Shown here: positions 5,764 to 37,145 of the stretch, one piece after another | How positions within the stretch are numbered: position 1 is the stretch's first letter | Layout of the letters: every line of letters starts with the position of its first letter | From: an uncultured Gammaproteobacteria bacterium | GTDB lineage: Bacteria; Patescibacteriota; Microgenomatia; PFEM01; JAHIFH01 | Length of the DNA stretch: 64,000 nucleotides | NCBI GenBank assembly: GCA_964347135.1 | Contig: CAYFXA010000001.1 | Location: 7,563 to 71,562, forward strand | Direction of reading: 5' to 3' | Notes under the pieces: model-generated | What the model was told of the DNA's origin: nothing | The model's database searches: none | Seen by the model: only the letters and a program-made list of their open reading frames with translations | Made by a program: the position numbers and the translations under genes

Positions 5764-6036
5764 CTACCTGACTGCCTTCTTAAGTGGTTTGCCCGGAGAA
5801 AATCTTGGCGCCCGATGGCTTTTGACCATCTTTTTTTCGTTGGTTCCAGGAATAATTACTGGTTTGTCCTTGACCTTGACAACACGAAAAGTGCCGAAAC
5901 CGGAAAGAACGACTTTATCACCTTTTTTCAAAGCATTAGCAACTTCGGAAAGAAAAGTATCAATTGCCTCCCGCGAAGCTCTTTTAGTTAAATGGGCTTT
6001 AGTTGCCACTAAAGAAACAATTTGTTTCTTGGTCAT
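5764..6036 (-). CDS. hup: DNA-binding protein HU
   Basis: 90 aa; TKRASREAIDTFL...GFGTF...RNPRT-like arm (SHRAPRFSPG); HU/IHF fold. Confidence 0.85.
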   Translation of the reverse strand: MTKKQIVSLVATKAHLTKRASREAIDTFLSEVANALKKGDKVVLSGFGTFRVVKVKDKPVIIPGTNEKKMVKSHRAPRFSPGKPLKKAVR

Positions 6037-6069
6037 TAAATCACCTCCTTGAGCAGGAGACTTTAATAG

Positions 6070-6098
6070 AGGATAACTTAAAAAGGATAATTTGTCAA
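6070..6098 (-). promoter_or_regulatory. candidate sigma70 promoter for hup (TTGACA-17-TATCCT), followed by SD AGGAGGTG
   Basis: Minus-strand TTGACA (top 6093-6098), 17-nt spacer, TATCCT (top 6070-6075). AGGAGGTG lies 6 nt before the hup ATG. Confidence 0.3.
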
Positions 6099-6126
6099 GC
6101 TAATTCGGTCTTTTTTGAAGAAAACA

Positions 6127-7515
6127 CTATTTTGCTTTAGTGGTTTCACTAGCAGTTGTTTCTCGAATACAGGTTACTTTAATTTGTCCGGCATAAGAAA
6201 CTTTCTTCTCTAATTCTTTAGCAATCTTGTTTGCCAAAACCACTAACTCATCATCAGAAACTTCCTCGGGTTTAACCAAGACTCTCACATCTCGGCCCGC
6301 TTGATAAGCAAAAGCTTCTTCAACTCCTTTAAACTTGTTAGCGATTTCCTCAATTTCCTCCATTCGCTTAACATATTCTTCATGAGCTTCGTATCGAGCC
6401 CCCGGTCGAGAACCGGAAATGGCATCAGCAATCCAAACAATTCTTGACTCGGGTGAAGAAAAAGGCTTGTCCTCATGGTGCTCGGCAATGCAATCAATTA
6501 CCTCTTTGGGCAGCCGGTACTTCTTAGCCAAATCAACTCCTAATTGAACATGGGTGCCTTCTTCTTCGGTCACTACTTTGCCAATGTCATGGAGCAAGCA
6601 ACCAAGACGAACAATATTGGTATCTGCTCCCACTTCATGAGCAATTTGAACACCAATCTTGGTTTCTTCAAGAGTATGAGCAATCATATTTTGACCATAA
6701 GAAAACCTAAATTTAAAACGCCCTAAAAGTTTAATTAGTTCGGGGTGAAGTCGATAAACCTTAAGAGAATGACAAAGTTTTTTGCCTTCCTCGAACATAA
6801 TTTTTTCTACTTCTTTTCTAGTTCGCTCAACCACTTCCTTTATTCTGGCAGGCTGAATTCTTCGATCACGAACTAGTTTTTGGAGAGCTCTTTTGGCAAT
6901 TTCTCGACGAACAGGATCAAAAGAAGAAATAATAATGTCATTGGCATCACCTAGTTCAATCTCTACTCCTGTTGCCTGCTCAAAGGCGCGAATATTCCTA
7001 CCTTCACGACCGATAACTCGACCTTTTAATTCTTCACTAGGAAGCTGAACCGAAGAAACAGTGTATTCCGCCACATAGTCAGTGGCACCATGCTGCATCG
7101 CTTCCACCAAAAGCTCTTTGGCTTTCTCCTCGGTTTTCTCTTCAATCTCCTCTTCAGCTTCCTTAATCTTTCGAGCAATACTCTCTGCTAAATGTTTTTC
7201 AGTTGCTTCAAGAAGAAGCTTTTTTGCTTCCTCGCGCGTTAACTTAGCAATCTTCTCTAATTTGGCAATTTCTTTTTTCTTAATTTCATCAATCCCACTA
7301 AGTTTTTTATCCAATTCCCGCTTGCGTTTATTAAGCTGTTTCTCCTTCTCTTCTAAAGCTCCTTCACGCCTTTCAATTTCCGCAATTTTAGTTGCTAATT
7401 CCTTGGCAATCCTTTTACTAGCGGTTGTTTTTCCAACTGTTTTTCTTTTCCTTCCTTTTTGAGCCGCTTTCTCTTCTGCTATAGCTTTGGTTAATAAATT
7501 ATCTAAAAGTCCCAT
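6127..7515 (-). CDS. rny: ribonuclease Y
   Basis: Coiled-coil N-region, KH domain (GREGRNIRAFEQATG) and HD domain (LLHDIGK...HH). SD AAAGGAGG upstream. Confidence 0.85.
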   Translation of the reverse strand: MGLLDNLLTKAIAEEKAAQKGRKRKTVGKTTASKRIAKELATKIAEIERREGALEEKEKQLNKRKRELDKKLSGIDEIKKKEIAKLEKIAKLTREEAKKLLLEATEKHLAESIARKIKEAEEEIEEKTEEKAKELLVEAMQHGATDYVAEYTVSSVQLPSEELKGRVIGREGRNIRAFEQATGVEIELGDANDIIISSFDPVRREIAKRALQKLVRDRRIQPARIKEVVERTRKEVEKIMFEEGKKLCHSLKVYRLHPELIKLLGRFKFRFSYGQNMIAHTLEETKIGVQIAHEVGADTNIVRLGCLLHDIGKVVTEEEGTHVQLGVDLAKKYRLPKEVIDCIAEHHEDKPFSSPESRIVWIADAISGSRPGARYEAHEEYVKRMEEIEEIANKFKGVEEAFAYQAGRDVRVLVKPEEVSDDELVVLANKIAKELEKKVSYAGQIKVTCIRETTASETTKAK

Positions 7516-9484: not shown

Positions 9485-9561
9485 CGGGGTGTGGCGCAGT
9501 TGGCTAGCGCGTGCGCATGGGGTGCGTAAGGTCGCGGGTTCGAGTCCCGCCACCCCGACCA
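9485..9561 (+). tRNA. tRNA-Pro (anticodon GGG)
   Basis: Manual cloverleaf: acceptor CGGGGTG/CACCCCG, 4-bp D stem GCGC/GCGC, anticodon stem TGCGC/GCGTA with loop A-T-GGG-G-T, T arm GCGGG-TTCGAGT-CCCGC. C1:G72 plus A73 are typical of bacterial tRNA-Pro. CCA is encoded. Confidence 0.85.
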
Positions 9562-15174: not shown

Positions 15175-15579
15175 CTAAACTCTCCTTTTCTTTCTTGGTC
15201 TGGGACCGTTGTGAGGAATGGGAGTAACGTCAGCAATTAAACTCATCTTAATTCCTGTGGATCTTAAAGCCCTTAGAGCCGAATCTCTGCCCGGACCAGG
15301 ACCTTTAATGTAAACTTCAACTTCTCTTATTCCCTGAGCCAAAGCTTTTTTAGCCGCGGCTTCAACCGTACTCACTGCCGCAAAAGGAGTTGATTTCCTT
15401 GCTCCTTTAAATCCCACTTCGCCTGAACTTCCCCAACAAATAGTATTACCTTCTAAATCAGTAAAAGTAATAATCGTATTATTAAAAGTGGCTTGAATAA
15501 AAGCTTTTGCCTTAGCCACTTGCTTCGGTTCTTTTTTTATTTTCTTTGCTTTGGTTTTTTTAGTCTTCGGTTTAGCCAT
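15175..15579 (-). CDS. rpsK: 30S ribosomal protein S11
   Basis: S11 family. Confidence 0.9.
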
Positions 15580-26651: not shown

Positions 26652-27498
26652 TTTCCTCCTTAGGGGCTTCTTCAGCCGGTTTTTCTTCTTTTTTCTCGGT
26701 TGGCTTTGCTTCTTTGCCTGGTTCAGGCTTTTCCTCTGCTGTTTCCGCTGCTTTCAAAGCTTCTTTGGCTTCTTTTTCTCGTCGTAAACGCTCAGCTCGT
26801 TGTTCTTCGGTTTCTTCGATTTTTTTCTCTCCTTTTTTAAGTAAAGGCACAAACCGTTTAACTTTGCCTGTTTTGATAATGGTTAAAAAACCATTGATCG
26901 CTCCTGGCACTAAGCCTTTTACAAGCAATTCATCTTTTTTTTCATCAATTCCCATTACCGTTAAACCCAAAACCGTTACTTTATTTCCCCCAGCTCGACC
27001 CGCCATTTTTTTACCTTTTCGAACTCGCCCAGGTGTGGTTCCTTGACCAATTGAGCCTGGAGCTCGTTCACGGTCAGACTGGCCATGAGTCCGAGGACCA
27101 CCTTTAAATCCCCAGCGCTTAACTACGCCGGTAAAGCCCTTGCCTTTTGCCCAACCAGTTACTTTGACTTCATCTCCTGGCTGAAAAATGTCAGCAACCT
27201 TAATTTGGTCGCCAACTTTAAGCCTATCTGCTGGTTTTTCGAGCCTAATTTCGCCTAAAAAGCGAGGAGCTTTTTTTAGCTTAGCTCCTCGAAGATGTCC
27301 TTGTAATTGTTTGCTTACCTTAGTCATTTTTTTCTCTCCCCAACCAATTTGAATTGCATTATAGCCATCTTTCTCTTGCTTCCGAATATGAACCACGTAA
27401 CAAGGTCCGGTTTTGATTCTGGTAACCGGAACTCGCCCACCATCTTGAGTGAACCTTTGAACAGTTTTACCTTTTGTGCCTAAAATAGCGTTTAACAT
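26644..27498 (-). CDS. rplC: 50S ribosomal protein L3 with about 70-aa Lys/Glu-rich C-terminal extension
   Basis: Start at MLNAILGTKGKT (27498); the longer track ORF would begin inside the terminator hairpin. The C-terminal KKGEKKIEETEEQRAERLRREKEAKEALKAAETAEEKPEPGKEAKPTEKKEEKPAEEAPKEENA is not found in typical L3. Confidence 0.85.
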   Translation of the reverse strand: MLNAILGTKGKTVQRFTQDGGRVPVTRIKTGPCYVVHIRKQEKDGYNAIQIGWGEKKMTKVSKQLQGHLRGAKLKKAPRFLGEIRLEKPADRLKVGDQIKVADIFQPGDEVKVTGWAKGKGFTGVVKRWGFKGGPRTHGQSDRERAPGSIGQGTTPGRVRKGKKMAGRAGGNKVTVLGLTVMGIDEKKDELLVKGLVPGAINGFLTIIKTGKVKRFVPLLKKGEKKIEETEEQRAERLRREKEAKEALKAAETAEEKPEPGKEAKPTEKKEEKPAEEAPKEENA

Positions 27499-31852: not shown

Positions 31853-31948
31853 ATATATAATTCTACCAATTTTTAAGCAAACAAAAAACCGCCTCTGTCA
31901 AGAAGCAGGTTGGCTTCAAAATTATTTTAACAAAATCATGCCTGTAAT

Positions 31949-32299
31949 TCAAGCACCACGCTCCGGATGGATTCTTTTCGTTTCGTTAAGAAGTTCAGAC
32001 AACACTTTCTCGTTTTCTGTTTCAAAATGATGATCTTGGGTAAAACTTCTTACCTCCATCGTCCCAATTTTTCCTGAACCATCAAAGACATCAAAAACAT
32101 CGTGCTGAGGTAATCTGCCTAATCCTCTTTTAAAACGGTGGTGTTCAACACAAGCTTGAGCAAGACTGCCCTCGGCTCTAATAAAAAGTTTTTCTCCTGC
32201 CCATTCGCTCGCTTCACCTGCTTTCAAAGAAATTGAGCCAACAATCTTTTCCCGACATTCTTGACAAGTTGCTCTTGCTTTTGGTTTTGTTAACAACAT
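31949..32299 (-). CDS. hypothetical protein inserted between rpsG and fusA
   Basis: 116-aa ORF MLLTKPKARATCQECREKIVG... with CxxC and CVEHH; no family recognised. Confidence 0.45.
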   Translation of the reverse strand: MLLTKPKARATCQECREKIVGSISLKAGEASEWAGEKLFIRAEGSLAQACVEHHRFKRGLGRLPQHDVFDVFDGSGKIGTMEVRSFTQDHHFETENEKVLSELLNETKRIHPERGA

Positions 32300-32360: not shown

Positions 32361-32837
32361 TTACCACCGGAAATGGGCAAATGCCTTATTGGCTTCGGCG
32401 ATTTTATGGACTTCTTCTTTTTTGGCAACGGCGCCACCCTGCTTGTTGGCAGCATCCATTAGTTCGGCGGCTAACTTTTCGTAAAAGTGATGATATTCTT
32501 TATTGGAGCGTGCTTGGGCTGCTTGAATGAGCCAACGAATGGCCAATGACTCCCGCCTATCACCTTTAACCGGCATCGGTACCTGATAAGATGCTCCACC
32601 AACTCTTCGAGGACGAACTTCCATTTTCGGCTTAATGTTTTCCAAAGCTTTTTGAAAAATTTCTAGGGGGTTTTCTTTAGTCTTTTCCTCAACCAGATTA
32701 AAGGCATTATAAACGTGTTTTTGGGCAACCGTTTTTTTGCCTTGGCGCATCACTCGATTAATTAGCCGCGCTACAATCCGGCTTTGATAAACCTCATCAG
32801 CGGCAATAACCCTTTTGGGTGCTCTTTTACCCCTCAT
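32361..32837 (-). CDS. rpsG: 30S ribosomal protein S7
   Basis: Start at [10 protein letters not shown] (32837); S7 family. Confidence 0.9.
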
Positions 32838-33327
32838 CTCCCTCTCCTTTTGTCTCTTCTTTTTCTTCAGGTTTCTCTTCACCAGCTTCTTCACCTGGAC
32901 CAGTCACTTGGGCAACAACGCCGCCCTTTCGGGTGCCGTATTTAGAACGAGCCTTTTTCCGCCCGGTAACGCCGGCCGTATCAAATCTTCCCCGAACAAC
33001 GTGATATTTTACTCCTGGCAAATCCTTAACTCGCCCACCCCGAACCAAAACCACCGCGTGTTCAGCCAGGTTATGTCCTTCACCCGGGATATAGGCAGTG
33101 ACTTCTTTTTTATTAGAAAGTCGAACCCGAGCCACTTTTCTTAAAGCTGAATTGGGCTTTTTAGGCGGCATGGTCTTGACATGAAGAACCACTCCTCGCT
33201 TAAAAGGACTCATCGTTTCTGTCATCCGGCGGTCTTTGGCATTAAAAGTTTTCCGCAAAGCCGCGGCCTTTATTTTTTTCCTGGTTTTCTTCCTGCCCTT
33301 ACGGACAAGTTGACTGATTCTTGGCAT
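32827..33327 (-). CDS. rpsL: 30S ribosomal protein S12 (with acidic C-terminal extension)
   Basis: [12 protein letters not shown]...[11 protein letters not shown]; about 30 extra acidic C-terminal residues ([24 protein letters not shown]). Confidence 0.9.
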
Positions 33328-33354
33328 GGTTAATTTCGAGCAACGCGAGAAACA

Positions 33355-33443
33355 AGGTTCTGAGCGAAGCTCAGGTTCTTATTTTACCAAATTTGAGCTC
33401 ATTTCTCAAAGAGAAATTAGGTTCTCGCGAAGCGAGGTTCTTA
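33355..33443 (-). repeat. structured rpoC-rpsL intergenic region: two copies of an AGGTTCT-hairpin-GGTTCTTA motif flanking a third hairpin
   Basis: Copy 1 is CTGAGC-gaa-GCTCAG (33360-33374). Copy 2 is CTCGC-gaa-GCGAG (33424-33436), overlapping the rpoC stop. Both are flanked by GGTTCT direct repeats. The middle hairpin is ATTTCTC-aaa-GAGAAAT (33401-33417). Confidence 0.5.
33381..33409 (-). promoter_or_regulatory. candidate str-operon promoter TTGAGA-17-TAAAAT embedded in the hairpin region
   Basis: Minus strand has TTGAGA (top 33404-33409, inside the middle hairpin), a 17-nt spacer, and TAAAAT (top 33381-33386). Copy-1 hairpin would form the 5' end of the rpsL transcript. Confidence 0.4.
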
Positions 33444-36400
33444 CTCTTCAATCTTAGCGCGTTCAGGGGTAACAGGAATAAGCCGGCCAATAATTACGTT
33501 TTCCTTAAGGCCAAGAAGGTTGTCTTCCTTACCTTCGGCGGCAGCATCAGTCAAAACATTGGTCGTTCGCTCAAAGGAAGCGGCTGAAAGCCAAGATTCA
33601 GTGTAAAGAGAGGAACGAGTAATTCCCAAAATTACCACCTGGGCTGAAGCAGGCTCACCGCCTTCTGCAAGAACCTTAGCGTTTTCTTCCTCAAACAAAG
33701 ACCGACTAAGAAATTGACCAGGCAATAAAGAAGTGTCTCCTGAAGTCTCGATACGAACTTTGTCACTCATCTTTCTAATAATTACTTCAAAATGTTTGTC
33801 TTGAATATGAATACCCTGGGACTCGTAAACCGTTTGTAATTCTTCAATCAAGTATTCTTGGGCGGCTTTCAATCCTCTAATTTCTAATATCTCGCGGACA
33901 TCAAGAGACCCAGTGGCCAATTGCGTCCCAGCGTCAATCAAATCACCATCACTAACCTTAACTTGACTAACCGCTGGCACCAGATATTCTCTTTCTTCAA
34001 CTGGCTTGACTCCTACACTTTTAATCCTAATTCGATAACCCTCCTCAGTTTCATCCACCGCCGCCTTTCCGGCTATCTCTGCTAAGGGAGCCAATACTTT
34101 TGGCTTTCGTGCCTCAAACAATTCTTCTACTCTCGGTAAACCTTGAGTAACATCAGAAACAACAATACCGCCAAAATGATGAGTTCTTAAAGTCAACTGA
34201 GTGCCGGGTTCACCAATAGACTGGGCCCCAACAACGCCGACGGGTGTCCCGACTTCGACTATCGACTTTGTTGAGAAATCCCAACCATAACACTGAACGC
34301 AAATACCATATTTAGTTTTGCAAGTCAGGGGTGAACGAATTTGAACTTTATTAACTTTATGCTTCTTCAAAAGGGAAAGGTTGTTTTCAGAAATTACTTC
34401 GCCTTTTTTAAGCAACACCTTTTTTGTTTTAGGACTAACCACCTTATCCGCCAAAACCCGCCCCAAAATTCTGCTTAAAAATTTCTCTCCTCGCCTCCCT
34501 GAGTGAACAATCTCAATTGATTCTTTAGTACCACAATCTTCCTCCCGAACAATAACGTCATGGGCAACATCAATTAATCGCCTGGTCAAATAGCCCGCAT
34601 CAGCCGTTTTCAAGGCGGTGTCTGTTAATCCTTTTCGTCCACCTCGGGCGGAAGTAATGTATTCAAAAACCGACAAGCCCTCTCTAAAATTAGACTTCAC
34701 CGGCAACTCAACAATTTTACCCACAGGGTCAACTACCAATCCCTGCATTGCCGAAAGTTGTTTGACCTGGTCTTTTGAAGCTCGTCCGACCTTGGCTTCA
34801 ATTATTAAACGAACACTATTCTCCGAATCAAATTTCTCCCAAGTCCTATCAGCAAGGTCTTCGGTGGTATCCATCCAAACCTCTTGAGTTAAACGCCGCC
34901 TCTCTTGGTCAGTAATTAATCCCTTATTGTAATTCTCTTCAATTTGGGCTACTTTTTTGTTTGCTTGTTCAATTATTTCTGGCTTCTCTTCTAAAATCTT
35001 ACAATCCAAAACTCCGAGCGAAAGTCCAGAAAGGGTTGAACCCCAGAAGCCAATTCTTTTAATATCATCAATCAACTTAACAACAGTTTGGGTATCACAG
35101 ACCTGCATTGCTCGAGTAATCAAAGCCTTAATCGTTGGTCCTTTAACAACATCATTGACAAAGGACAACTCTTTGGGTAAAATCCGATTAAAAATGACGC
35201 GTCCAGGGATAGTTTTTATAACTTCGCTGTCGGTTTTCACTTTAATCAATTGACGAAGATCAACTTTCTCCTCTTGATAAGCCAAAACCACCTCTTTTTG
35301 GGTGGAAAAAATTGTTGGATAAGTAGGTAATTTCTTATTAACCGAGGTGATAAAAAAGCAACCCAAAGCCATTTCTTTATTAGGAATGTCTATTGGCGAT
35401 CCATCCGATGGTTTAAGTAAATTTTTATCGGGAGCCATTAACTCCAAAGACTCTTTTTTCGCTTTCTCACCTAAAGGAACGTGAACCGCCATCTGGTCTC
35501 CGTCGAAGTCAGCGTTGTAACCAGAACAAACACAGGGATGAATTTGAATTGCTTCTCCTTCAATTAAAACTGGGTAAAAAGCTTGAATACCCAATTTATG
35601 GAGAGTTGGGGCTCGATTAAGCAAAACGGGATGGTCTTTGGTAATCCTTTCTAAGATATCAAAGACCTCTGGTGGTCTTTGTTCAAGAACATTTTTAGCA
35701 TTTTTGACGTTTGGTGCCACTCCTGTCAAAATCATCTCCCGCAAAACAAAAGGCTTAAACATCTCTAAAGCCATCTCTTTGGGCAAGCCACATTGATTAA
35801 GTCTCAATTCAGGTCCAACAACAATAACCGAACGACCCGAATAGTCAACTCGTTTTCCTAATAAATTCTGTCTAAAGCGTCCTTGTTTACCCCGCAGCAT
35901 ATCAGAAAGCGAACGCAATGGTTGACGACGCCGACGATAACGCCGAATTGGTCGTTTAGAAGCATCAATTAAAGTGTCAACCGATTCCTGGAGCATTCGC
36001 TTCTCATTGCGAAGAATAATTTCTGGTGCCCCTAATTCAATTAAATGCTTGAGTCGATTATTTCGGTTAATCACTCGGCGGTAAAGGTCATTCAGGTCAC
36101 TGGTAGCAAAACGACCGCCGGAAAGCTGAACCATTGGTCTTAAATCCGGAGGAATTACCGGCAGAATCTTTAAGACCATCCAGGCAGGATCAACCTCAGC
36201 TTTTCTAAAACCTTCAACCACTTGGAGTCTTTTAACTGCTTTAATGTGACGAGCACCCTTACTTTCCTTAACAACCGTTTTCAAATCAGCCGCCAATTTT
36301 TCTAGATCAATGTTTTTAACCGCCTCAAGGATTGCCTCTGCTCCCATGCCAACCTTGAAAAAGTCAGCCGCTTTGTATTCGACTAACTTTAGATACTCAT

Positions 36401-37145
36401 CTTCGCTAATAAGAACTTTTTCCTTCAGGCCTTTCACTAAATTAATAATCGCTTGATAAACCTCTTCGGCCCTTTCTCCTTCAGCTAAATATTCATCACG
36501 GAGGCTTTGAATTTTTTGCTTAATTTTAAGATCAATTTCCCCTAGAGCTAAAGCCAGTCTGTCTTTATCTTTAATCTCTTTTTTGGCCTTGACATTCTCC
36601 TGTTGACCTTCCTCTTTAGCTTCTTGAATTTTTTTCTCGCGCTCCTCTTTAAGAGCTTTCTTTTTTCCGGCCAAATCTTTTTCTAATCGTTCAATCGTTT
36701 TTTTCTGTTTTTTATTATCAACTTCCGAAGTTAAATATTGGGAGAAATAGATAACCGATTCCAAACCTCGAGGAGAAATATCTAAAAGCAACGACAGTTT
36801 TGAGGGAGTGCCTTTAAAAAACCAAATGTGGGCAACTGGTGAAGCTAGGTCAATATGACCCATTCGTTCTCGCCTTACTCGAGACTGAGTAACTTCAACA
36901 CCACACTTATCACAAACAATTCCCCGATAACGAATTCGTTTATATTTTCCACAATAACACTCCCAATCTTTAGTCGGCCCAAAGATTCGTTCGCAGAAAA
37001 GACCATCTTTTTCTGGTTTCAGAGTTCGGTAGTTGATTGTTTCTGGCTTGATAACCTCACCGTGAGACCAATCTTTAATCTCTTGCGGTGAAGCCAATTT
37101 AACCCTCAAACCAGAAAAATCAACAATGTTTTTACCAAATACCAT
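33441..37145 (-). CDS. rpoC: DNA-directed RNA polymerase subunit beta'
   Basis: 1234 aa; zinc-binding [20 protein letters not shown]; NADFDGD active site. Confidence 0.95.

Follow-up and report, generated by a model that had tools for sequence, protein, structure and literature searches.

In the stretch of contig CAYFXA010000001.1 that we analyzed (64 kb; the window), the spacer between rpoC and rpsL very probably consists of two copies of a dispersed repeat of the Candidate Phyla Radiation (CPR) that were inserted around an ancestral promoter, and not of an operon-specific regulator. On its best-folding strand, the repeat is a unit of about 35–65 nt with the layout (hairpin A, variable)-CA-AGGTTCT-(hairpin B, usually on GCGAAGC)-AGGTTCT-TA. 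Some sites carry units in one genome but none at the orthologous position in close relatives; sequence comparison identifies this pattern as recent insertion, in most cases directly before a TAA stop codon or at the codon itself. We infer that the unit is a mobile element of the non-autonomous kind, of which new copies are made in trans within a genome. Its family, which resembles the mini-elements known as repetitive extragenic palindromic (REP) sequences and miniature inverted-repeat transposable elements (MITEs), is apparently undescribed.

The spacer is 113 nt long and contains two AGGTTCT-hairpin-AGGTTCTTA modules (+ strand, 33355–33381 and 33419–33443), a middle hairpin and a promoter on the − strand, which also carries both rpoC and rpsL (Table 1; all coordinates follow the + strand of the window). 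Read on the sense strand, it runs TAA-GAACCT-CGCTTCGCG-AGAACCT-AATTTCTCTTTGAGAAATGAGCTCAAATTTGGTAAAATA-AGAACCT-GAGCTTCGCTC-AGAACCT-TGTTTCTCGCGTTGCTCGAAATTAACC-ATG. The sequence, an inverted-repeat search and a promoter scan all agree with the original prediction of a duplicated hairpin module with an embedded promoter. The middle hairpin, TTTCTC-AAA-GAGAAA, occupies 33402–33416 (repeat I3 of the inverted-repeat search), and a fourth, imperfect hairpin with a tandem G.A mismatch (TTTCGAGCAACGCGAGAAA, 33334–33352) is part of copy 1. The pattern GGTTCT-N9-21-GGTTCT occurs three times in the window versus 0.13 times expected from shuffles, and two of the three occurrences are the spacer modules.

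With the additional hairpins, the modules extend to two units, U1 and U2, the last three bases of U2 being the rpoC stop codon (TTA 33441–33443 on the + strand, TAA 33443..33441 on the − strand). U1 is identical at 44 of 47 positions (94%) to a unit in an unrelated contig (L135). The resemblance of U2 to other family members is confined to its 25-nt core, for which many contigs hold identical units. In a search of the window, a covariance model derived from 28 hairpin B cores (R1) recovered these two units only, U1 with 47.4 bits (E = 5e-12) and U2 with 28.7 bits (E = 3e-6); the next-best match reached 9.2 bits. Taken alone, U1 and U2 have folding energies only modestly better than shuffles (z = -1.3 to -3.0), and in U1 an alternative pairing between its two similar hairpins competes with the local hairpins.

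Comparison of S12 and of the RpoC C-terminus places the window in CPR/Patescibacteria, within the Microgenomates group, and the relatives lack the module at this position. Upstream of rpsL, it was found in 0 of 80 species-level relatives (L002 and 79 others), and it is likewise absent from the rpoC–rpsL spacer of L209, L081, L082, L083 and L211–L214. The closest contig, L209, is 96.8% identical to the window over the last 124 RpoC residues and 94% identical in S12. Its spacer reads GAG GAA TGA-GCTCAAATTTGATAAAAT-TGACTC-ATG, and its promoter, TTGAGG-17-TGATAAAAT, has the -35 box inside the last rpoC codons. The spacer of L081 and L082 is 25 nt long (TAG-CTTCAAATTTGCTAGAAT-AATTTCT-ATG). The 24–25 nt spacer of the closest relatives holds only a promoter with a -35 and a TG-extended -10 box, the latter about 6–7 nt from the ATG, and a core CTTCAA(A/T)TT(T/G)TG(C/A)TA(G/A)AAT recurs near the ATG in L081, L082, L083 and L214.

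This comparison also supports the predicted window promoter, TTGAGA-17-TAAAAT, which scored 10/12 in the promoter scan and has an additional TG before the -10 box. The TG-extended -10 box, kept in the relatives, is identified as ancestral by the alignment, and in L209 the -35 box is conserved too. Downstream of copy 2, the window retains the L209 stretch TTGAGAAATGA-GCTCAAATTTGG-TAAAAT. The first part of this stretch, TTGAGAAATGA, is a relic that is identical at 10 of 11 positions to the rpoC end of L209 and is followed by the same GCTCAAATTTG, while rpoC itself now closes with a second copy of the same 11 nt (TTGAAGAGTAA). Since the promoter stretch is kept and rpoC ends in the duplicated 11 nt, the whole promoter is old. 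The DNA at U2 that is new compared with L209 is limited to about 33410–33440 plus the 11-nt duplication of the rpoC end. The only present roles of the relic are those of -35 region and of one arm in the middle hairpin, which by this comparison is half relic and half new inverted copy; the -35 box lies inside this hairpin, as had been noted from the sequence. At U1, TAA stands at both junctions, versus a single TAA in the empty site of L081. A -10 box placed 6–7 nt before the ATG implies a leaderless or nearly leaderless rpsL mRNA in the relatives, and from this promoter geometry the ancestral mRNA was probably of the same type. The geometry is also that of a promoter upstream of fusA in the window, where TGGTAGAAT at 31860–31868 (−) ends 7 nt before the ATG and represents a leaderless-type promoter within the str operon.

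The proposed history of the spacer comprises two insertions. U2 would have entered the last rpoC codons with duplication of the 11-nt gene end, so that both RpoC and the -35 box survived. The RpoC protein would thus be unchanged, with a hairpin 7 nt past its stop codon. U1 would have entered between the -10 box and the ATG. As a result, the rpsL mRNA, leaderless until then, would have acquired a leader of about 47 nt that lacks a Shine–Dalgarno sequence, with transcription predicted to start at about 33372–33377 on the − strand. Hairpin B would form the 5′ end of this leader, with an unpaired GAAAUUAACC before the AUG, and the position of the -10 box is consistent with the earlier suggestion that copy 1 lies at or near the mRNA 5′ end. 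5′-terminal stem-loops are able to stabilise bacterial mRNAs, and REPs near stop codons can influence translation in Escherichia coli. Any effect of the two units on rpsL or rpoC expression would be a by-product of insertion and not a conserved regulatory design.

Table 1. Features of the rpoC–rpsL region and of related loci in other contigs. Locations without a contig name refer to the window.
Feature	Location	Strand	Description
rpoC	33441..37145	−	TIGR02386 match, 1519 bits
rpsL	32827..33327	−	TIGR00981 match, alignment starts at residue 1
rpsL start	33325..33332	−	ATG 33327..33325 after TAACC; TAA 33332..33330 is the second TAA of the U1 junction
Ancestral rpsL promoter	33381..33409	−	-35 TTGAGA 33409..33404, 17-nt spacer, TG 33389..33388, -10 TAAAAT 33386..33381
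Copy 1	33355–33381	+	AGGTTCT 33355–33361, GAGCGAAGCTC 33362–33372, AGGTTCT 33373–33379, TA 33380–33381 (from sequence)
Copy 2	33419–33443	+	AGGTTCT 33419–33425, CGCGAAGCG 33426–33434, AGGTTCT 33435–33441, TA 33442–33443 (from sequence)
Unit U1	33333..33381	+	Complete 49-nt two-hairpin unit between -10 box and rpsL start codon
Parts of U1	33334–33381	+	Hairpin A 33334–33352 (TTTCGAGCAACGCGAGAAA), CA 33353–33354, AGGTTCT, hairpin B 33362–33372, AGGTTCT, TA 33380–33381
Unit U2	33402..33443	+	Hairpin A 33402–33416, TT, AGGTTCT, hairpin B 33426–33434 (CGCGAAGCG), AGGTTCT, TA
Present rpoC end	33441..33451	−	TTGAAGAGTAA (I E E stop); second copy of the duplicated 11 nt
Relic of ancestral rpoC 3′ end	33399..33409	−	TTGAGAAATGA versus TTGAGGAATGA (..L E E stop) in L209
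Units beside tRNA genes with duplicated 5′ ends	L150 2040–2330; L104 330–470; L119 7850–8040		
Y1_Tnp (IS200/RAYT-like) genes	L207 18982–19710; L084 1900–2601		Own palindromes, e.g., TTGTTGACGTCTGACTTCAACAA in L084; unrelated to AGGTTCT units

The extent of the family was assessed by searching metagenome contigs for the exact pattern AGGTTCT-N1-3-GCGAAGC-N1-3-AGGTTCT, and the family counts given here are among the matches listed. The pattern is present in at least 120 contigs. The same pattern had 0 matches in 2.9 million viral contigs, and the AGGTTCT unit therefore does not appear to be phage-borne. Outside the pattern, the first heptamer is preceded by CA (C in 85%, A in 99%), the second is followed by TA in 171 of 215 cases, and a T-rich tail extends beyond the unit on the AGGTTCT strand (T at +3 in 71% and at +6 in 57%). 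Most copies have a second hairpin just upstream, whose commonest form is TT(T/C)GAGC-NNN-GCGAGAA with a tandem G.A mismatch. Head-to-tail arrays are frequent and always run on one strand, with a period of 36–63 nt, up to 7 core matches per array and, in some contigs, several arrays. Some of them (L123, L182) have a 36-nt period of 9+9+9+9 nt, in which hairpins alternate with single-stranded segments.

Named hosts of the family are Nealsonbacteria, Curtissbacteria and a ‘Patescibacteria group’, which together with the Microgenomates-like window span at least two CPR classes (Microgenomatia and Paceibacteria). Two pattern matches inside tuf (L093 2487–2509; L125 4781–4803) encode ..QVLAKPGS.., lack the CA/TA flanks and were set aside as chance occurrences. 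Rfam provided no family for the spacer (E-value mode; best E 1.3, with none of the five chance-level matches aligning to the unit as such), its gathering-mode scan of the whole window returned nothing but one tRNA, and the limited collection of full-text papers that we searched contained no description of the AGGTTCT repeat.

Structural conservation is a property of the whole family. The original prediction had read selection on structure from the two window stems, which form a weak case by themselves: both hairpin B stems share the GCGAAGC core, and only one or two outer pairs differ. Across 50 unique hairpin B cores, the three outer stem positions form Watson–Crick pairs in 43, 33 and 29, with all four pair types represented, and 0 of 2000 shuffles attained this pairing. 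A subset of 28 cores was picked by hand, without several imperfect ones; here, 98.6% of cells pair and 44 cells are changed on both sides (0 of 500 shuffles attained the observed values). Stem mismatches are mostly G.A (43) and never C.T. The heptamers and the CA/TA flanks remain constant across distant CPR lineages while hairpin B co-varies. This covariation identifies selection on the hairpin as real, as shown by the family and not by the two window copies.

The two strands of the unit differ in folding. Of 57 unique units, 56 have the better fold on the AGGTTCT strand (-9.0 versus -4.95 kcal/mol), and with G.U pairs the two heptamers are able to lengthen the stem on this strand only. The G.A mismatches are likewise strand-specific. 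The favoured strand in the window is the + strand, which is antisense to rpoC and rpsL. The exact sequence GCGAAGC is present on the AGGTTCT strand in both window copies and in most of the family members found, in each case within hairpin B, and passages of PMC13037366 describe d(GCGAAGC) as an extraordinarily stable DNA mini-hairpin. This mini-hairpin is a physical motif, not a genetic element, and because the search pattern demanded it, the matches give no measure of how frequent it is in the family.

The units are mainly located between genes, with 126 of 149 arrays (about 85%) being intergenic among the matches listed. Their neighbours are ordinary housekeeping genes: units are found between tRNA genes, after rplD, rpsS, rplP, rplE and map, and beside polA, secF and ftsA. 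Every protein family encoded next to the units is confined to 8 or fewer of the 120 loci, and all-against-all clustering of 864 neighbouring open reading frames (ORFs) gave housekeeping families only. Ten ORFs tested beside six larger arrays encode RuvB, SecF, FtsA, a sigma factor and similar proteins. All orientations occur. The TTA end faces an opposite-strand gene in 51 cases versus 26, the two orientations relative to transcription of co-directional neighbours number 24 versus 14, and divergent spacers are the rarest context (5/53 to 13/94). In 28 cases, an ORF of at least 60 codons terminates in frame at the TAA of the unit, versus 6–7 cases in each other frame. Because the unit brings its own TAA, insertions in the last codons of a gene would be tolerated, which would produce this orientation bias.

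Filled and empty sites can be compared directly in Nealsonbacteria. In a contig of Candidatus Nealsonbacteria (L182), an array lies directly behind the stop codon in each of five genes (rplD, rpsS, rplP, rplE and map), and contigs L204–L207, whose S3 protein is 77–91% identical to that of L182, have compact junctions such as TAA-C-ATG at these sites. Three of the five filled sites, those after rplD, rpsS and map, read TAA-(GAACCT ... AAAT)-TAA-(C/T)ATG or equivalent. At rplE, the ancestral stop codon persists downstream of the insert and the unit provides a new one. Two of the L182 inserts are identical over 46 nt, and L206 contains decayed unit remnants. Furthermore, the array after rpsS has 7 core matches in L123 (2789–2921) versus 5 in the near-identical L182 (3146–3278), a difference that indicates copy-number instability. 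The ribosomal protein operons of Nealsonbacteria also carry a gene for a YafQ-like toxin and a small partner ORF between rpsJ and rplC (L204–L206, ~6000–6700).

A different type of junction is found beside tRNA genes (Table 1). There, an exact second copy of the first 8–18 nt of the tRNA stands across the unit from the gene, and hairpin A contains the same bases in inverted form. The rpoC site has the same layout, with target copy, core, inverted copy and target copy in succession. Judged from sequence, this arrangement suggests fold-back or template-switch events rather than fixed cut-and-paste. The idea that the units are tRNA introns was rejected, as they adjoin intact tRNA genes with duplicated 5′ ends and are not inside them.

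We propose that the unit inserts at or just before TAA (TTA) sites and that it would be recognised as a folded single-stranded nucleic acid, via the AGGTTCT strand, by an enzyme encoded elsewhere. A route like that of REP/RAYT or IS200/IS605 is our best guess, and such single-strand, HUH-type mobilisation is put forward tentatively. With TTA as the end of the unit and TTA/TAA at or beside its landing sites, a resident unit could offer a target at its end for the next copy, which would generate head-to-tail arrays. It is conceivable, though doubtful, that the units form an undescribed, CPR-wide family of mobile double hairpins of ~35–65 nt that combines its own stop codon, gene-end insertion and head-to-tail arrays, even within ribosomal protein operons. 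The enzyme of such a family, possibly new, would read the AGGTTCT pair on one folded strand, and the junctions would hint at fold-back or template-switch insertion unlike known transposition. The candidates for a linked transposase were rejected. A tblastn search with a CPR Y1_Tnp protein yielded one homologue among 120 motif loci (L084), which has its own unrelated terminal palindromes, and the gene between oppositely oriented units in L122 encodes an M23/LysM peptidase, not a transposase.

Several observations weigh against the interpretation of the units as inserted mobile elements. No mobilising enzyme was found, and two Y1 (PF01797) genes in ~1.4 Mb of CPR DNA, which consists of contig fragments, are flanked by unrelated hairpins. 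The junctions are uneven, with TAA at both ends at the protein-gene sites compared, an 11-nt duplication at rpoC and duplications of 8–18 nt at tRNA genes. A suffix-match test did not support a general long target duplication, the excess coming only from unrecognised array periodicity and a few sites, and the high frequency of TAA in these AT-rich spacers prevents a statistical test of TAA duplication. The units have no terminal inverted repeats; their ends, ATTTCGAG... and ...CAGGTTC(TTA), are alike only via the shared hairpin motif. The family appears uniform in part because the search pattern admitted only exact heptamers and the GCGAAGC core, and the window holds only two copies, which leaves activity in this genome hypothetical. 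Finally, the constancy of the heptamer in two CPR classes could just as well reflect a host function with a conserved host factor.

This last point leads to the possibility that the units are host-functional signals, mobile or not, such as intercistronic mRNA stabilisers, processing sites, weak or bidirectional terminators or binding sites of a CPR-conserved protein. REP/BIME elements of E. coli act secondarily in such roles. The invariance of the heptamers and CA/TA flanks over distant CPR lineages alongside a co-varying hairpin would fit this explanation, as would the rarity of units in divergent, promoter-side spacers, the T-rich tail on the AGGTTCT strand, where both window copies were scored as terminator-like, and the position of the L182 units within a highly expressed operon. 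We nevertheless regard a host signal as rather unlikely. Both orientations relative to transcription are common, close relatives manage without units at the same sites, remnants decay, array length differs between near-identical L123 and L182, and five terminators in one ribosomal protein operon are implausible. The original prediction was more specific and considered a protein-binding module, for example for ribosomal protein autoregulation, in which S7 or S12 would bind the hairpins to control rpsL–rpsG and copy 2 may act as rpoC terminator or processing site. The positions agree with this idea, with copy 2 next to the rpoC stop codon and copy 1 at the predicted 5′ end of the rpsL mRNA. Such an operon-specific device is highly improbable, given that no relative examined, not even the very close L209, has the modules in its rpoC–rpsL spacer and that they recur in at least 120 unrelated contigs beside unrelated genes and tRNAs; lack of conservation in relatives and a common dispersed repeat are the two outcomes that the original prediction had named as refuting it. 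The overlap of copy 2 with the rpoC stop codon is confirmed, but its role as terminator is not: AACCUAAUUUCU follows on the sense strand without a U-run, and copy 2 is terminator-like only on the + strand. In addition, the best-folding strand is antisense to both genes.

The remaining two explanations concern the origin of the hairpins and their kinship with guide RNAs. Slipped-strand duplication or template switching within the spacer, without wider meaning, would be in line with the two copies lying 64 nt apart in direct orientation and sharing 7–9-nt direct repeats that favour slippage. The 94% identity of U1 over 47 nt to a unit in an unrelated contig, the presence of the U2 core in many contigs and the existence of at least 120 independent family loci make a local origin barely credible. 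Degenerate or novel TIGR-like stem-loop guide-RNA arrays, with the window copies as stray units, share with the AGGTTCT family their CPR hosts, among which TIGR-Tas systems are common, as well as tandem units (some with the 36-nt period of 9+9+9+9 nt seen in L123 and L182), palindromes alternating with short single-stranded segments and the CUU at the stem base reported for stem-loop tigRNAs (PMC12045711; bioRxiv 10.64898/2026.09.09.750476). Moreover, the hairpin ends UG/CG...CNA resemble box D and box C. A TIGR-like nature is still very improbable: the would-be spacers are always AGGTTCT, which leaves no guide diversity, the box C - 9 nt - box D interval of 14 nt that defines stem-loop arrays (PMC12045711; bioRxiv 10.64898/2026.09.09.750476) is replaced here by one of 11–12 nt, single units are scattered over whole genomes, and no Nop/Tas or tas gene or other recurrent gene was found beside arrays, either among the ten ORFs at six larger arrays or in the clustering of 120 loci.

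Among known systems, insertion of a small dispersed element can be compared with several types of mobile DNA. Tourist/PIF-Harbinger and IS5-type MITEs are commonly described as tiny, non-autonomous elements with TAA/TTA at both junctions and AT-rich targets, properties shared with the AGGTTCT units. The latter differ in their much shorter length, in the lack of terminal inverted repeats and in internal hairpins that are flanked by direct repeats. The IS200/IS605 single-strand transposons, whose details were reportedly worked out for IS608 by Barabas et al. in 2008 and Ton-Hoang et al. in 2010, and their miniature derivatives, the PATEs, resemble the unit in that both sub-terminal hairpins are similar and belong to the same strand and in that terminal inverted repeats are lacking. 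In IS200/IS605, the right end likewise lies ~9–10 nt beyond the hairpin foot, and insertion takes place beside a short fixed sequence, namely 3′ of a tetra- or pentanucleotide; where this sequence is also the element end (TTA), head-to-tail arrays would follow. However, the AGGTTCT unit is several-fold smaller than the described derivatives, and no cognate tnpA was found. It also shows TAA at both junctions and sometimes longer duplications (rpoC, tRNA), whereas IS200/IS605 elements are not known to make any. A TTA at the left flank together with a TTA at the element end fits insertion with or without target duplication. Similar behaviour is reportedly known from two types of mitochondrial element, the mobile G+C clusters in yeast mtDNA and the double hairpins of fungi (said to have been described by Weiller et al. 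in 1989 and Paquin et al. in 2000), which are palindromic or double-hairpin units of 30–50 nt, single or tandem, with a fixed trinucleotide at both junctions, in compact AT-rich genomes and with an unknown mobilising activity. Sequence and hosts are unrelated, and the resemblance is one of behaviour only.

In its behaviour, the family is also like REP/BIME elements and REPINs, which passages of PMC2817692, PMC3116915 and PMC3733652 describe as mobilised by RAYT (Y1 HUH) transposases. In these passages, REPs appear as short (20–60 nt), G+C-rich, imperfect palindromes with many extragenic copies and a preference for gene 3′ ends, like the AGGTTCT units. Both form composite arrays, fold strand-specifically, as expected for recognition of single-stranded DNA, differ in presence between relatives and may have secondary effects on mRNA stability and termination. 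Compared with the elements described there, the AGGTTCT family lacks a GTAG or CGTC tag in its flank profile and instead has two direct heptamers with CA/TA. Its arrays are head-to-tail, unlike the inverted pairs of REPINs and the alternating order of BIMEs, and its units carry a stop codon, abut coding ends and occur in CPR hosts. No unit-flanked RAYT gene was found in the contig fragments, where the Y1_Tnp genes of L207 and L084 are accompanied by other hairpins.

The surroundings of the spacer contain further features. Downstream of rpsL, the gene order is rpsG, a 116-aa ORF, fusA and tuf. The 116-aa ORF (31949–32299, −), located between rpsG and fusA, has no NCBIfam match, and the str/S10 region of Nealsonbacteria likewise contains small unannotated ORFs. 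Window S12 has 166 aa, with a Lys/Glu-rich C-terminal tail of ~30 residues past the 124-position bacterial S12 model, and the S12 proteins of clade relatives range from 139 to 202 aa. A tRNA-Pro(GGG) gene at 9485–9561 (+) is the only RNA gene detected in the window at the Rfam gathering threshold. It sits in a mechanically called 457-aa ORF on the opposite strand, which is probably over-extended. Perfect hairpins directly flanked by direct repeats of at least 5 nt occur 22 times in the window versus ~9.5 times in shuffled sequence; examples at 271–289, 15468–15484 and 26878–26895 are unrelated in sequence to the AGGTTCT family.

For the window itself, insertion of two dispersed units means that the hairpins carry no specific information on S12/S7 regulation. 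More generally, the unit poses a practical hazard, since annotators may take it for a terminator, a regulatory RNA or an array of the CRISPR/TIGR type. As array length differs between close contigs, it may also be of use as a strain marker, and identification of the copying agent could reveal a new mobilising activity or a new nucleic-acid-binding protein conserved in CPR. Genomes of CPR/Patescibacteria are about 1 Mb in size and are thought to be streamlined and repeat-poor. A repeat that is common to distant CPR classes, and that can sit between the cistrons of a ribosomal protein operon, replace stop codons and give a leaderless mRNA a leader, would represent a so-far unnoticed force on gene expression and genome evolution in these organisms.

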